Positions 8,622-28,070 of a DNA stretch of 64,000 nt are shown here, piece by piece. How positions within the stretch are numbered: the first letter of the stretch is position 1; each line of letters opens with the position of its first letter. The stretch is from the NCBI RefSeq assembly GCF_013167455.1, contig NZ_CP038328.1; one strand, given 5' to 3'. Position numbers and translations under genes: made by a program. Under the pieces are notes generated by a model that saw only the letters and a program-made list of their open reading frames with translations, was not told the origin of the DNA and made no database searches. The DNA is from Escherichia coli O157:H7. Lineage in GTDB: Bacteria > Pseudomonadota > Gammaproteobacteria > Enterobacterales > Enterobacteriaceae.

Positions 8622-11048
8622 TTAAACCTTTTCGATCTGGACAAGATTGCTGTGCGACGGGTTTCCCTTTGCCAGCGGTGAAGGGCGGTGAGAGGTCAGA
8701 ATATTGATACTGCCGCCGTGATCGACCCGGTCACCAAACATATCCGCTTTAAGCCACGCACCTTGCCCGATGGCGGTAACGCCAGGCAGAATACGCGGAG
8801 TCACTTTTGCGGCAATCAGCATTTCTCCATTATTGTTAAATACCCGCACGGTATCGCCATGACGGATACCGCGAGCCTGAGCATCAATGGGGTTGATCCA
8901 CACCTCTTGTGGGCAGGCCTGCTGTAACACATCAATATTGCCGTAGCTGGAGTGGGTACGCGCTTTGTAGTGGAAGCCCGTTAACTGCAGTGGATAGGTT
9001 TTCCGCAGGGGATCGTCCCAGCCATCAAAACCTGGGGTATACGCAGGAAGGGGATGAATAATTTCATCTTTTTTCAATTCCCAGGTATCTGCAATCTTCG
9101 CCAGTCGTTCAGAATAAATTTCGATTTTCCCCGAAGGTGTTTTCAACGGGTTTGCCTGTGGATCTTCACGGAATGCGCGGAAAGCGACGTAGTGTTCTTC
9201 CGGGCATTTTTTCTTAAAGATCCCGGTCGTTTTCATCTCCTCGTAGTCGGGCATCTCAGGGTTACGTTCCTTCGTTTTCGCATGGAGATATTTGATCCAT
9301 TCATGCTGACTGCGACCTTCAGTAAAGGTTTGATAAACGTCCGGTCCTAAGCGTTTGGCGACTTCACTCAGCATCCAGTAGATGGGTTTGCGTTCAAATT
9401 TTGCTGAGGTTGCGGGTTGGGCGAGGATCACATAGCCCATATTCCCTGCAGATTCATGAGAGATAAGGTCTTCTTGCTCTGTTGGCATCAGGTCGGGCAA
9501 CAGGATATCGCAATACTTAGCCGAGGCCGTCATGAAGTGGTCAATGCCAACAATCATCTCGCACTTGCTGTCATCCTGAAGCACCTCATTGGTGTGATTG
9601 ATGTCGCCATGTTGATTGATCAATGTGTTACTGGCGTAGCACCATAAAAACTTGATGGGGACATCCAGTTTTTCTTTTCCACGAACACCATCACGGGTCG
9701 CGGTCATTTCCGTACCATGGTCGATGGCATCTGTCCATGTAAAGACGGAAATCTGCGTTTTAACAGGATTCTCGAGCATCGGGAACCATTCTACCCCCAG
9801 ATCCCAGCTACCTTCGCGTACACCTGAGTTGCCGCCGTTTATGCCGACGTTACCGGTGAGAACGGAAAGCATGGCAATAGCGCGGGATGTTTGCTCGCCG
9901 TTGGAATGTCGTTGTGGCCCCCAACCCTGACAAATATAAGCAGGTTTTGCTGAACCGATCTCTCGTGCCAACTGGATAATTTTTTCTGCCGGGATGCTGG
10001 TGATTTTTGCTGCCCATTCCGGCGTTTTAGCTATGCCGTCAGGCCCTTCGCCCAGAATATAGGCTTTATAATGCGCGTTACGTGGTGCGTTGGCGGGCAG
10101 CGTTTTTTCATCGTAACCAACACAATATTTGTCGAGAAATGGCTGATCGACCATGTTTTCACTAATCAGTACCCAGGCAATCGCACAGGCCAGTGCGCCA
10201 TCGGTGCCAGGGCGAATGGGCAGCCATTCATCTTCACGCCCGGCAGCTGTGTCGTTATAACGTGGATCGATGACGATCATGCGTGCGTTTGAACGTTCGC
10301 GGGCTTGCTCGACGTAGTAAGTGACACCACCACCGCTCATCCGCGTTTCTGCCGGGTTATTTCCGAACATAACGACCAGTTTCGTATTGGCGATATCATC
10401 CGGGCTGTTGCCATCATTGGCACCGAACATATAACTCATTGCGGCACTGATCTGTGCGGTACTGTAGCTGCCATAGCGACTGAGAAAACCACCGCAAGAG
10501 TTCATCAGACGGTACGGGACGTTTGAGTTGGTGATGTTTCCGCCATCTACGCCTGTTCCGTACAGGACATGTACAGCCTCATTGCCGTAATCTTTCAGGA
10601 TCCGCCGAAGATTATCACTGATGGTATCCAGGGCTTCGTCCCAACTTATCCGTTCAAATTTACCTTCACCGCGCTTGCCGACGCGCTTCATGGGATATTT
10701 CAACCTATCAGGATGATTCATCCGTCGGCGGATAGAGCGCCCGCGTAAACACGCACGAACCTGATGATTACCGTAGACGTCGTCACCTGTCGTATCAGAC
10801 TCCACCCAGTACACGGTGTCATCTTTCACATGCAAACGTAACAGACAGCGGCTCCCGCAGTTAACGGTGCAGGAACTCCAGACCGCTTTCTCTTCTACCG
10901 GTGCCTCTGCCGCTCGGACCATTTGGGAAAATGGCAGAGTGAAAGCACTGCTTGCCAGCGCAAGACTGCCAAGTGCGGAGGTTTTCATCAGACTTCTACG
11001 GCTGATTTCAGCCTTCATGAGCGCCTCTGTGGTATGGATTTTCATCAT
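8622..11048 (-). CDS. ynfF: Tat-dependent molybdopterin oxidoreductase catalytic subunit YnfF (DmsA paralog)
   Basis: 808 aa with twin-arginine signal (SRRSLMKTSALGSLALA) and molybdopterin-enzyme motifs; close paralog of the adjacent ynfE; exact start (first or second Met) uncertain. Confidence 0.9.
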   Translation of the reverse strand: MMKIHTTEALMKAEISRRSLMKTSALGSLALASSAFTLPFSQMVRAAEAPVEEKAVWSSCTVNCGSRCLLRLHVKDDTVYWVESDTTGDDVYGNHQVRACLRGRSIRRRMNHPDRLKYPMKRVGKRGEGKFERISWDEALDTISDNLRRILKDYGNEAVHVLYGTGVDGGNITNSNVPYRLMNSCGGFLSRYGSYSTAQISAAMSYMFGANDGNSPDDIANTKLVVMFGNNPAETRMSGGGVTYYVEQARERSNARMIVIDPRYNDTAAGREDEWLPIRPGTDGALACAIAWVLISENMVDQPFLDKYCVGYDEKTLPANAPRNAHYKAYILGEGPDGIAKTPEWAAKITSIPAEKIIQLAREIGSAKPAYICQGWGPQRHSNGEQTSRAIAMLSVLTGNVGINGGNSGVREGSWDLGVEWFPMLENPVKTQISVFTWTDAIDHGTEMTATRDGVRGKEKLDVPIKFLWCYASNTLINQHGDINHTNEVLQDDSKCEMIVGIDHFMTASAKYCDILLPDLMPTEQEDLISHESAGNMGYVILAQPATSAKFERKPIYWMLSEVAKRLGPDVYQTFTEGRSQHEWIKYLHAKTKERNPEMPDYEEMKTTGIFKKKCPEEHYVAFRAFREDPQANPLKTPSGKIEIYSERLAKIADTWELKKDEIIHPLPAYTPGFDGWDDPLRKTYPLQLTGFHYKARTHSSYGNIDVLQQACPQEVWINPIDAQARGIRHGDTVRVFNNNGEMLIAAKVTPRILPGVTAIGQGAWLKADMFGDRVDHGGSINILTSHRPSPLAKGNPSHSNLVQIEKV

Positions 11049-26245: not shown

Positions 26246-26641
26246 ATGGCGAAACCTTTTACACACGAACAGCGTGAAGAACTGAAGGCCCGAATTATCG
26301 GGCTGGTACGCAAAAATGAACGCATGACGATATCACAACTGGAGAGAGCGACGGGAGCAGGCTGGCATTCAGTCAGACGTTGCCTTGTGGATGTACTGGC
26401 TTGTGGCGATTTATACATGCCCGGTAAATACGGTGTTTTTACATCAGAACAGGTGTATCGCGTATGGCGTAAGGCAGCGGAGAAAGCAACCGACCAGACA
26501 TTGATTCGAAAGTTACCAGACGGAGAAATACGCCGCTACGACAGACAACAGAACATAATCTGTGGCGAGTGCCGGAAGAGTGAAGTTATGCTGCGTGTAC
26601 TGGCGTTCTATCAGGGCAATTTTCAGGAGGCGGTACTGTGA
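26246..26641 (+). CDS. Hypothetical phage protein
   Basis: 131-aa ORF with RBS; no recognisable motif except a CGEC pair. Confidence 0.4.
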   Translation: MAKPFTHEQREELKARIIGLVRKNERMTISQLERATGAGWHSVRRCLVDVLACGDLYMPGKYGVFTSEQVYRVWRKAAEKATDQTLIRKLPDGEIRRYDRQQNIICGECRKSEVMLRVLAFYQGNFQEAVL

Positions 26642-27282
26642 GTGAATTAGCTATCAGGCTTCAATTGTCGCTGGCATTCGCATCAAAGGAGAATGAGATG
26701 ACCACTTTTACAAAAGAGCAGTTAATCAGTCATGTTAGTGAAAATGTAAAGGCGATGAAATTTGCAGTAAAACAGACAGCATTCAAAAATTCTCTCGAGG
26801 CAATTGAGTTGGATTTAGCACTGGCCCTTGTTGCTCAGGCTTCGCTGGAAGCAGAGCCCGTGCTTTATATGAATCGATTTACCGGAAAGACATTCTCACT
26901 GGAAGAGCAACCCGGTGCTGATAAGGAACCGGAAATATACGTGCCGCTATATGCTGCCCCGCCAGACAGCGCCGCCATGCTTCAGGCTGGAAACTTTCGG
27001 GAAAAAAAGGGTTCGTCAACCAATAATTTTCGGGAAATCTCGGAAACGTCAACCAACTATCCGGTAACTCTGGATGATTGGATAAGCTGTAGTGAGCGAA
27101 TGCCGGATGATGGTCAGCACGTAATTATTTTATGTGATGGCGCATTCGTTCTTTATGCGCAATATCGAGACGGTGAGTTTTTTGATGTAGTCCGTAATGG
27201 TGATGAATTTTTCGAAACACAGAGCCGCAATGTAACCGACTGGATGCCGCTACCAGAACCGCCGCAGGAGGTGCGCCAATGA
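26638..27282 (+). CDS. Hypothetical phage protein with DUF551-like C-terminus
   Basis: C-terminal ...WISCSERMPDDGQHVIILCDG...WMPLPEPP resembles the DUF551 signature (from memory). Confidence 0.4.
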   Translation: MSELAIRLQLSLAFASKENEMTTFTKEQLISHVSENVKAMKFAVKQTAFKNSLEAIELDLALALVAQASLEAEPVLYMNRFTGKTFSLEEQPGADKEPEIYVPLYAAPPDSAAMLQAGNFREKKGSSTNNFREISETSTNYPVTLDDWISCSERMPDDGQHVIILCDGAFVLYAQYRDGEFFDVVRNGDEFFETQSRNVTDWMPLPEPPQEVRQ

Positions 27283-27362
27283 TCTGGCCTGAAGCCTTTG
27301 CAATTACAGGCGTTGCTATAGCTATTGATTTTTTAGTATATGTTATTTGTCGGTGGGGGTAA
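27279..27362 (+). CDS. Candidate 27-aa hydrophobic micropeptide
   Basis: ATG overlaps the upstream stop (ATGA); MIWPEAFAITGVAIAIDFLVYVICRWG is one predicted TM helix. Confidence 0.25.
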   Translation: MIWPEAFAITGVAIAIDFLVYVICRWG

Positions 27363-27397
27363 AAACGTTCGCCGGGATTCACACCAAAGGAGGGAAT

Positions 27398-27502
27398 ATG
27401 TCGGATGATATTTCACTGGCAATGGAAGGTGCGCTGGCTGTTATTGCTGTTGTGGGCGTTTACTGCCTGGTTGTGTTTTTGATGGATCGACTAGGGAACT
27501 GA
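27398..27502 (+). CDS. Candidate 34-aa single-TM micropeptide
   Basis: Strong RBS AAAGGAGGGAAT before ATG; MSDDISLAMEGALAVIAVVGVYCLVVFLMDRLGN. Confidence 0.3.
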   Translation: MSDDISLAMEGALAVIAVVGVYCLVVFLMDRLGN

Positions 27503-27510
27503 ATTCATTA

Positions 27511-27532
27511 CGATATGGGAATTCCCATATCG
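27511..27532. repeat. Perfect 22-bp palindrome CGATATGGGAATTCCCATATCG
   Basis: Exact reverse-complement symmetry, seen directly; lies between the micropeptide ORF and the hok locus. Confidence 0.9.
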
Positions 27533-27639
27533 GGTAAAAACGGTTTGCGGTAAAGCGAGAGTTAAGTAGAATTGCTGCGGGTGCTTGAGGCTGTCTGCCT
27601 CGGGCATGCCACCGTAAGGCAGACAGAGAAAAGCCCCAG

Positions 27640-27710
27640 TTAACATTACGCGTCCTGCAAGACGCCTAACATTAATCTGAGGCCAATTTCATGCTAGACA
27701 CATGTAGGTT
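27640..27710 (-). ncRNA. sok: Predicted Sok-like antisense RNA region (position inferred, not mapped)
   Basis: Inferred from hok/sok architecture: antisense to the mok translation-initiation region; boundaries not determined. Confidence 0.25.
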
Positions 27711-27903
27711 AGCCTCTTACGCGCCGAAAGGCAAGGAGAAGCAGGCTATGAAGCAGCAAAAGGCGATGTTAATCGCCCTGATCGTCATCTGTATTACCGT
27801 CATAGTGACGGCACTGGTAACGAGGAAAGACCTCTGCGAGGTACGAATCCGAACCGGCCAGACGGAGGTCGCTGTCTTCACAGCTTACGAACCTGAGGAG
27901 TAA
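27691..27903 (+). CDS. mok: mok (modulator of killing) reading frame overlapping hok
   Basis: ORF MLDTCRLASYAPKGKEKQA... in the hok frame, starting upstream of hok as in hok/sok loci. Confidence 0.55.
   Translation: MLDTCRLASYAPKGKEKQAMKQQKAMLIALIVICITVIVTALVTRKDLCEVRIRTGQTEVAVFTAYEPEE
27748..27903 (+). CDS. hokD: Hok-family type I toxin (HokD/RelF-like)
   Basis: MKQQKAMLIALIVICITVIVTALVTRKDLCEVRIRTGQTEVAVFTAYEPEE, near-identical to recalled HokD. Confidence 0.85.
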   Translation: MKQQKAMLIALIVICITVIVTALVTRKDLCEVRIRTGQTEVAVFTAYEPEE

Positions 27904-27973
27904 GAGACCCGGCGAGGGAGAAATCCCTCGCCACCTCTGATGAATCAGGCATCCTCAACGCACCCGCACTTAA

Positions 27974-27998
27974 CCCGCTTCGGCGGGTTTTGTTTTTT
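27974..27998 (+). terminator. Intrinsic terminator after hok
   Basis: CCCGCTTCGGCGGG hairpin followed by TTTTGTTTTTT. Confidence 0.6.
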
Positions 27999-28070
27999 CC
28001 TGGCATTCTGGTTTACAATTCGCACGCCAGCCTGAACAACTGGCACCTGCTGCGCCAGCAGAGACAACCG

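Follow-up and report, generated by a model that had tools for sequence, protein, structure and literature searches.

The 64,000-nt window analyzed here is a stretch of contig NZ_CP038328.1 of Escherichia coli O157:H7, and the interval under study lies immediately upstream of a hok toxin gene within it. This interval contains a 27-residue open reading frame (ORF1), a 34-residue open reading frame (ORF2), and a perfect palindrome (Table 1). As the original prediction stated, both frames encode hydrophobic peptides with a single transmembrane (TM) helix, and hok follows directly downstream; the predicted start of ORF1 was exact, whereas that of ORF2 had to be moved by one base. In the RefSeq annotation, replication genes, DUF1627, DUF977, DUF551, a 34-aa hypothetical protein, hokD, a hypothetical protein, DUF968, RusA, and Q follow one another on the plus strand. 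Because of this gene order, the interval is assigned to the nin region of the early-right operon of a lambdoid prophage. Positions 27200–27700 are 100% identical to the E. coli O157:H7 lambdoid prophage NZ_AP018488. The best explanation, to which a probability of roughly 0.5 is given as a whole, is that the interval is a mosaic junction holding three separate things: ORF1, ORF2, and the palindrome.

Table 1. Features of the ORF1–ORF2–palindrome interval and the adjoining genes (window coordinates).
Feature	Position	Strand	Description
DUF551-domain gene	26698..27282	+	RefSeq start; its TGA overlaps the ORF1 start
ORF1	27279..27362	+	27-aa single-TM peptide MIWPEAFAITGVAIAIDFLVYVICRWG; ATG start; absent from the RefSeq annotation here
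Direct repeat, left copy	27357..27367	+	11 bp, GGGTAAAAACG; overlaps the ORF1 end
ORF2 Shine-Dalgarno	27387..27393	+	AAGGAGG, 4 nt ahead of ATG
ORF2	27398..27502	+	34-aa single-TM peptide MSDDISLAMEGALAVIAVVGVYCLVVFLMDRLGN; RefSeq WP_001278450.1, hypothetical protein
KilA-N gene-like segment	27497..27541	-	45 nt; antisense homology to the part of KilA-N/BstA-C genes that contains the palindrome
Palindrome	27511..27532		CGATATGGGAATTCCCATATCG; perfect, 22 bp, spacerless
Direct repeat, right copy	27532..27542	+	11 bp, GGGTAAAAACG; start of homology to most chromosomal hok loci
hok promoter, putative	27544..27572	+	-35 TTTGCG/TTGCGG 27544-27550; -10 TAGAAT 27567-27572
hok/sok locus	27579..27903	+	Rfam sok/hok 5' model 27579-27753, 116.9 bits; mok-like ORF 27691-27903; hok coding sequence (CDS) 27748-27903
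hok terminator	27972..27999

ORF1 encodes a peptide with one strongly hydrophobic 19-residue stretch (mean Kyte–Doolittle value of 2.31). Its ATG shares the ATGA at 27279–27282 with the TGA of the DUF551 gene, and a GGAGGTG lies 5–11 nt before this ATG; GGAGGTG or GGAT is present at the same distance 5' of the start among the homologs. A tblastn search of phage genomes revealed full-length relatives with 50–63% identity in 92 phage records. Six of these loci were retrieved for inspection, namely those of Stx2a_WGPS2, ArgO145, 933W, the lytic Vequintavirinae phage Av-05, PhiR12_4, and BP-4795. In all six, the homolog is exactly 27 codons long, its ATG overlaps the stop of the preceding DUF551/Ea22-like gene as ATGA, the C-terminus reads (C/F)RW(G/R), and the gene was left unannotated. 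Among 20 unique sequences, the proportions of synonymous and nonsynonymous differences (pS and pN) were 0.46 and 0.145, and the pN/pS ratio was 0.32 in frame versus 0.79 and 1.60 in the other two frames, as expected under purifying selection. The start is replaced solely by another start codon (GTG in the relative L050). Gene calls are sporadic, forming 18 small clusters, every one "hypothetical". A decayed copy was seen in phiSTEC1589-Stx1c (L002), which carries a premature TAG at codon 3.

The genes 3' of ORF1 vary between phages and include xis/int-side genes, a toxin–antitoxin pair, unrelated genes, and hokW. Since these neighbors vary, ORF1 travels with the DUF551-type gene and not with hok, to which it has no special tie. 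Judged from these comparisons, ORF1 appears to be a real, conserved membrane micropeptide gene of an essentially unannotated family, and its translation would be coupled to that of the preceding DUF551 gene.

The start of ORF2 was deduced from the RefSeq CDS of WP_001278450.1, of which several point variants exist, and from a 51-aa ORF with a TTG start (27347–27502). The peptide again has one strongly hydrophobic 19-residue stretch (mean Kyte–Doolittle value of 2.72), and the strong ribosome-binding site claimed for it is indeed present. The members of its family, 29–34 residues in length, fall into three subtypes. Subtype A, found in this window and in related O157-type prophages, has the sequence MSDDISLAMEGALAVIAVVGVYCLVVFLMDRLGN behind AAGGAGG and ATG and is followed by the palindrome and then the hok promoter. 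Subtype T, with the sequence (M)VLVLKCALAIAAVMAIYCLAVVLMDRLSD, occurs in phages Tritos, Evi, mEp460_ev081, and HannyBb and in many prophages; it shares 44–50% identity with subtype A and starts with GTG, or ATG in some variants, behind AGGAGG. Its stop lies about 10 nt 5' of the hok -35 element, and the palindrome is absent. Subtype S (MLVLKGTLAIAAVMTIYCLIVVLMERFSD, AGGAGG and ATG) resides on 143 plasmids of the Shigella pINV and enteroinvasive E. coli type, where it precedes a decayed 5' remnant of hok about 300 bp upstream of icsP. An example is the intact, unannotated copy at 917–1006 of L437 (Shigella flexneri pINV, NZ_CP026794.1), near the virulence gene icsP; no Rfam match to hok/sok is left at this locus.

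A hok promoter lies 3' of ORF2 in 69 of 69 distinct contexts with an intact 3' flank, and the linkage of ORF2 to hok is real; the original prediction had tied both peptides to hok, which thus holds for ORF2 and fails for ORF1. No in-frame stop was found among 30 unique ORF2 sequences, and start codons are exchanged solely for start codons (ATG/GTG in subtypes T and S). The pN/pS ratios in the ORF2 frame and in frames 1 and 2 were 0.19, 0.82, and 2.30 within subtype A, 0.47, 0.72, and 0.67 within subtype T, and 0.27, 0.42, and 4.36 between subtypes S and T, respectively. Frame 1 is closed by a stop in subtype T. These features suggest that ORF2 is very probably a real gene, which would be translated from its own Shine-Dalgarno sequence. 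One subtype T copy (L261) has a frameshifted N-terminal half. Within ORF2 of the window, a terminator-like hairpin with a T-run lies at 27453–27479; it is probably a chance occurrence, since two such sites were found in the region versus 1.3 ± 1.2 in shuffled sequences. Neither ORF1 nor ORF2 matched a family in the Pfam-derived, NCBIfam, or PADLOC libraries, and the PHROG hits were marginal, none being significant. In the literature searched, neither the two peptide sequences nor WP_001278450 was found. Most likely, both peptides are expressed from the early-right operon as small accessory proteins of the membrane.

ORF2 and the palindrome together occupy the space between the ORF1 stop and the hok promoter. 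The 11-bp repeat GGGTAAAAACG occurs twice in the window, versus 0.02 copies expected, and in 933W and phiSTEC1589-Stx1c the ORF1 stop is joined to the hok promoter through a single copy. Because the direct repeat bounds ORF2 and the palindrome and this empty site exists, the two constitute a 175-bp insertion or deletion; a deletion between the repeats would account for the empty site just as well. As for an origin from a miniature inverted-repeat transposable element or an insertion sequence (IS), the cassette has the flanking 11-bp direct repeat, and no terminal inverted repeats were seen on reading the sequence. Homology to most of 4047 E. coli genomes begins at 27532–27536. In other prophages, the same slot holds nothing, an antisense KilA-N gene containing the palindrome, or a putative ORF6N-domain gene with the palindrome behind it. 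In a fourth setting, 3' of paa/adfO, the locus shares with the window just the palindrome and the 17 nt to its left. The cassette is not a component of the hok/sok unit: the Rfam model begins 3' of ORF1, ORF2, and the palindrome, and hokW of 933W directly follows ORF1 without ORF2 or the palindrome.

The slot gene mentioned above was read from the sequence as ORF6N-like in two IMG/VR prophage contigs (L011, 9720–10268, and L052). It gave a weak match to PADLOC PDC-S05 (5.8e-8), and the palindrome directly 3' of it lies 22 nt farther from the hok promoter than in the window. In L052, an inserted element (approximately 8660–9460) cuts the hok region after the sok/hok 5' part, and its minus-strand ORF resembles, by eye, an IS5-family transposase.

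The palindrome is unique in the window even when three mismatches are allowed, and no match was found in 100 shuffled sequences; by our own arithmetic, 64 kb should contain about 0.015 perfect palindromes of 22 bp. Its RNA would form a hairpin of -14.5 kcal/mol (z = -3.3) in which an AAUU loop caps a 9-bp stem, in agreement with the strong hairpin that had been suggested. The recurrence search proposed with the original prediction found the palindrome not only in related prophages but also in KilA-N genes of unrelated phyla. When a DNA profile of 39 KilA-N/BstA-C genes was searched with nhmmer, the 45-nt segment at 27497–27541 aligned with profile positions 165–209 (E value of 2.5e-7, for a small target set). 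This similarity extends past the palindrome itself and takes in the last codon and the stop of ORF2; in the left flank of the palindrome, 10 of 15 positions match enterobacterial KilA-N genes. The orientation of the segment relative to hok is that of the full gene in L005. Thus, on nucleotide similarity, the window palindrome appears to be part of a 45-bp orphan fragment from a KilA-N gene, lying in antisense orientation to hok. Orphan palindromes occur in 632 of 5426 complete E. coli genomes, at up to four places. In its +1 reading, the palindrome flank gives DMGIPISGKNGL, which matches a Calothrix KilA-N protein over 12 residues, probably by coincidence (11 of 15 nt).

An exact scan of IMG/VR with the 18-nt core of the palindrome identified more than 120 loci, about 86 of them hok contexts. 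Most of the non-hok loci lie inside genes coding for ...ELS.DMGIPIS.LIQ.FKGG...QGTWVHP. These genes carry a Pfam KilA-N domain (1.4e-26) and a C-terminal domain that matches the PADLOC BstA model (6e-21) and shares 32% identity with the C-terminal domain of BstA of phage BTP1 (E value of 4e-16). By means of protein patterns with degenerate codons, 39 unique KilA-N/BstA-C genes with 48–100% amino acid identity were gathered. Among them, the synonymous difference reaches its minimum, out of 253 windows, in the 7-codon window on the palindrome (0.134 versus a median of 0.52). A complete degenerate-codon scan of IMG/VR for M-G-I-P-I-S...G-T-W yielded 97 stretches, which were reduced to 16 representatives with less than 80% amino acid identity and a local GC content of 31–60%. 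In the motif, CCC and ATA are used by all 16 representatives (19% and 15% background use in the same genes, respectively), GGA by 12 (18% background), and GAT, ATT, and TCG by 14 each. Synonymous variants are limited to GGA/GGG and ATT/ATC, i.e., to the first and last nucleotides of the AATT loop.

Beyond phages, the exact 20-mer was found at 45 loci in GTDB species genomes, versus about 0.3 expected by our own arithmetic. The taxa include Cyanobacteria, Chloroflexi, Bacillota, Bacteroidota, Spirochaetes, Alpha-, Beta-, and Gammaproteobacteria, and a genome of the candidate phyla radiation, and about half of these loci lie in KilA-N genes and about half elsewhere. In four KilA-N genes of Bacteroidota (L331, L342, L353, and L355; Saprospiraceae/Lewinella), the palindrome occupies the homologous position in another reading frame, so that LLWE-RYGNSHI-APVREVL stands in place of ELS-DMGIPIS-ELI. 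Here, it is lengthened to a perfect palindrome of 30–32 bp (GGAGCG...CGCTCC). The L353 protein has a Pfam KilA-N domain (1.2e-18) and shares 35% identity with the E. coli protein (E value of 3e-18).

The palindromy generally continues past the 18-nt core. Extensions of at least 2 bp were observed in 39 of 45 context classes (2.8 expected), of at least 3 bp in 22 (0.7 expected), and of at least 6 bp in 6 (0.01 expected), and the stem extensions are built from different bases in different contexts. The covariation score of the flanks exceeded those of 500 of 500 shuffles and of all slid controls. Owing to the synonymous constraint, the cross-phylum identity, the second reading frame, and the covarying flanks, the palindrome in KilA-N genes appears to be selected as a nucleic acid, with base pairing or dyad symmetry being kept. 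In Tolypothrix campylonemoides (L320, 548–590), a degenerate second copy, GATACGGGAATTCCCGCATC, abuts a perfect palindrome that is itself extended to 36 bp. Okeania sp. KiyG1 (L333, L334, and L335) contains three copies in one genome, each 20 nt 5' of a Shine-Dalgarno sequence and an ATG; these copies were rejected as clean operators of a Bro-N/KilA-N gene, the downstream ORF being just a 36-aa fragment that resembles a KilA-N N-terminus.

How might such an element work? The palindrome would act as a nucleic acid, in the form of a hairpin or of a dyad site, and KilA-N-type DNA-binding proteins would recognize it as their cognate cis-site; among these are the KilA-N + BstA-C abortive-infection proteins whose genes carry it. 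If so, a free copy in a phage without such a gene may therefore serve as a tag or decoy, like a self-immunity element, and not as a hok regulator. This reading is modeled on the BstA system: BstA is a prophage abortive-infection protein with a KilA-N(-like) DNA-binding domain, and its locus holds a DNA-based self-immunity element, aba (PMC8585504). The aba element acts as DNA, in cis or in trans, shielding its carrier phage (Owen et al. 2021, PMC8585504); in BTP1, it is a 63-bp sequence that spans the start codon and has terminal CCCGCC direct repeats (PMC8585504). The palindrome is likewise embedded in genes, of the KilA-N + BstA-C type, and constrained at the DNA level. However, BTP1 aba has no similarity to the palindrome in sequence or position, and the palindrome is also found in KilA-N genes with other C-terminal domains in many phyla. 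While its relatives lie inside KilA-N + BstA-C genes, the copy in the window is an orphan without such a gene nearby. A KilA-N-recognized site analogous to aba is nevertheless the preferred guess. Broader still, and doubtful at present, is the idea of a universal "KilA-N box", a hairpin or dyad element overprinted on the KilA-N coding sequence and kept constant between bacterial phyla, in at least two reading frames, as the cognate nucleic-acid ligand of the KilA-N domain; the invariant DMGIPIS motif would then be largely a by-product of constraint on the DNA, and free copies would be portable immunity or decoy tags against KilA-N-type abortive infection.

Two other kinds of short symmetrical sequence offer a comparison. 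Sites of the parS type can lie inside parB/spo0J genes, and their binding protein and function are established. The palindrome resembles them as a short palindromic site that is kept across phyla and can lie in the coding sequence of its presumed binding protein, but this partner is a deduction in the present case, and the outer positions show stem-like covariation, a property that parS does not require. Quasi-palindromes and cruciforms are recombination hot spots and are normally not conserved base-for-base across phyla or reading frames. In line with such a hot spot, the perfect AT-centered palindrome lies exactly at mosaic junctions, beside an indel bounded by direct repeats; unlike one, it is conserved base-for-base across both phyla and frames. 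The palindrome string itself was not found in the literature searched, which also yielded nothing relevant in the way of later work on aba or KilA-N binding sites, and a lead to HK022 Roi was unsupported by retrievable text.

Several observations weigh against the proposed reading of the interval. The window contains no KilA-N gene, the sole match being a spurious one in tail genes, and a KilA-N gene lies within the sampled locus in just 1 of 99 hok-type orphan loci. By megablast, the full L005-type KilA-N/BstA-C gene is present in 137 of the 5426 E. coli genomes, versus the 632 with an orphan. The E. coli orphan copies are near-identical to each other and hence uninformative on selection, and template-switch correction of quasi-palindromes could lengthen the palindromy without selection. 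Identity of the palindrome with BTP1 aba was rejected: BTP1 bstA does not contain the palindrome, and its architecture differs. With regard to the peptides, the comparison of ORF2 subtype A with subtype T (Tritos) fails to separate the ORF2 frame from frame 1 (pN/pS of 0.56 and 0.47, respectively, and 1.21 in frame 2). The supplements of the ribosome profiling (Ribo-seq) paper on O157:H7 Sakai contained no matching ORF1 or ORF2 peptide strings, although this is no argument against translation.

A serious rival to the KilA-N-site reading, tentative but possible, is that the orphan palindrome is a functionless scar: an antisense KilA-N/BstA-C gene between ORF1 and hok would have been lost on either side of the palindrome by palindrome-stimulated illegitimate recombination, leaving about 45 bp, so that the element would matter in KilA-N genes and not here. 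Indeed, at 22 loci, such as L005 / phage vB_EcoS-673R7 (257-aa product), an antisense KilA-N/BstA-C gene with the palindrome inside lies at the same position between ORF1 and hok, and the hok-linked orphans fit the gene profile better in this very orientation. Decay is also seen in some copies, with a 1-nt deletion in L264 and a CG>TG change in L219, and the location of the palindrome exactly at module boundaries, beside a direct repeat, agrees with such a loss. Yet, all eight independent orphan contexts are trimmed to just 26–50 nt around the palindrome, and no longer gene remnants were seen. Moreover, orphans with different flanks recur beside hok (types A/C and D), and orphans exist in distant phyla as well. 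The evidence does not separate the scar from the KilA-N-site reading.

The original prediction suggested a different role, under which one or both peptides would be further type I toxins or provide immunity to Hok, with the palindrome as an operator of the hok promoter; this is unlikely. Both peptides are indeed small, hydrophobic, and single-TM, as in Hok, Ldr, Ibs, and TisB, whose length range (27–34 residues) and prophage location they share, and ORF2 always adjoins hok. Beyond size and hydrophobicity, however, no type I toxin feature was found for either. No similarity to library families was found, the net charge is negative or neutral without a basic tail, and the translation signals are strong and of the operon type rather than those of a toxin kept untranslated by mRNA structure or a leader ORF: ORF1 has the ATGA overlap and ORF2 an unmasked AAGGAGG. 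Over 27279–27532, Rfam 15 gave no match at E ≤ 1, including none to a cognate antisense or divergent small RNA (sRNA) antitoxin, and the three weak promoter-like sites on the minus strand compare with 1.5 ± 1.3 in shuffled sequences. The hok/sok loci of 933W (hokW/sokW) and plasmid R1 encode a small single-TM peptide too, and hok/sok adjoins the ORF2 family on prophages and plasmids, but the antisense RNA or fold-back control of those systems was not found for ORF1 or ORF2. Furthermore, ORF1 mostly occurs away from hok, and Shigella pINV retains ORF2 beside a decayed hok remnant.

The operator half of this proposal fares no better. The hok promoter was deduced from the 5' end of the Rfam hok/sok model (27579) and the sequence, and it was not listed by the promoter scan. 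Relative to it, the palindrome would extend from about -68 to -47, with its center near -57, a position used by class I activators. However, ORF2 and the palindrome are absent from hokW of 933W and from most chromosomal hok loci, the distance between palindrome and promoter ranges from 12 nt through 34 nt to about 500 nt, and the same sequence stands in KilA-N genes. Because hok loci work without the palindrome and the spacing varies, a role in hok control is unlikely.

Still less probable is an RNA hairpin that ends the early-operon message, either guarding the ORF1/ORF2 mRNA from 3' exonucleases or keeping read-through transcripts apart from the hok mRNA, the folding of which is 5'-end dependent. 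The hairpin is stable and lies 9 nt past the ORF2 stop, ahead of the hok promoter, and several orphans elsewhere stand just past a gene and before a terminator (L035 and L059). However, the element is also found well inside coding sequences, in which a termination signal would do harm, and loci with ORF2 of subtype T do without it. An intrinsic terminator was rejected: the hairpin tail, GGGUAAAAACGG, contains no U-tract, the lack of which excludes this role, and the site was not listed by the terminator scan. Finally, chance open frames in a non-coding spacer are a highly improbable source of ORF1 and ORF2, since, although both are very short, gene finders hardly ever call ORF1, and the library searches gave nothing beyond marginal PHROG hits, the length, start overlap, and C-terminal CRWG of ORF1 are kept across phages whose synonymous divergence is 46%, the proposed frames have the lowest pN/pS, and both stops and starts behave as in genes (none of 30 ORF2 sequences interrupted, starts changing exclusively to starts). 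The conservation across homologous prophages that had been asked of these frames is thus borne out.

Around the interval, the DUF551 frame is open from a GTG at 26638, over the stop of the preceding gene, while RefSeq places the start at 26698. Sub-threshold matches to isrK, a Salmonella prophage sRNA family with a gathering score of 50, were found at 27912–27993 (27.7 bits) and 30475–30547 (22.7 bits), the first spanning the hok 3' end and the terminator region. Three tRNA genes lie in tandem at 30669–30915, 3' of the Q antiterminator gene, a layout that occurs in Stx-type lambdoid phages.

The hok locus, and ORF2 as an annotated hypothetical protein, were already known. The cross-phylum, frame-independent conservation of the palindrome appears to be new, no description having been found in the literature searched, and the nearest concept is aba of BstA. 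Thousands of records from E. coli, Shigella, and phages lack these two conserved micropeptide genes or label them just "hypothetical", and one of the two genes, ORF2, is a constant neighbor of prophage hok loci that survives also on Shigella virulence plasmids. In KilA-N genes ranging from those of Enterobacteria to those of Cyanobacteria, Chloroflexi, Bacillota, and Bacteroidota, the 22-base sequence appears to be conserved at the level of DNA rather than of protein. Motif analyses call for caution in this respect, since strong conservation of a protein motif can reflect a constraint that acts on the nucleic acid. The palindrome is a concrete candidate for the DNA or hairpin target of the KilA-N domain, including that of KilA-N/BstA-type abortive-infection proteins. 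If it is true that free copies protect the phages carrying them, they would represent a new class of DNA-only anti-defence element that is easily found by sequence.

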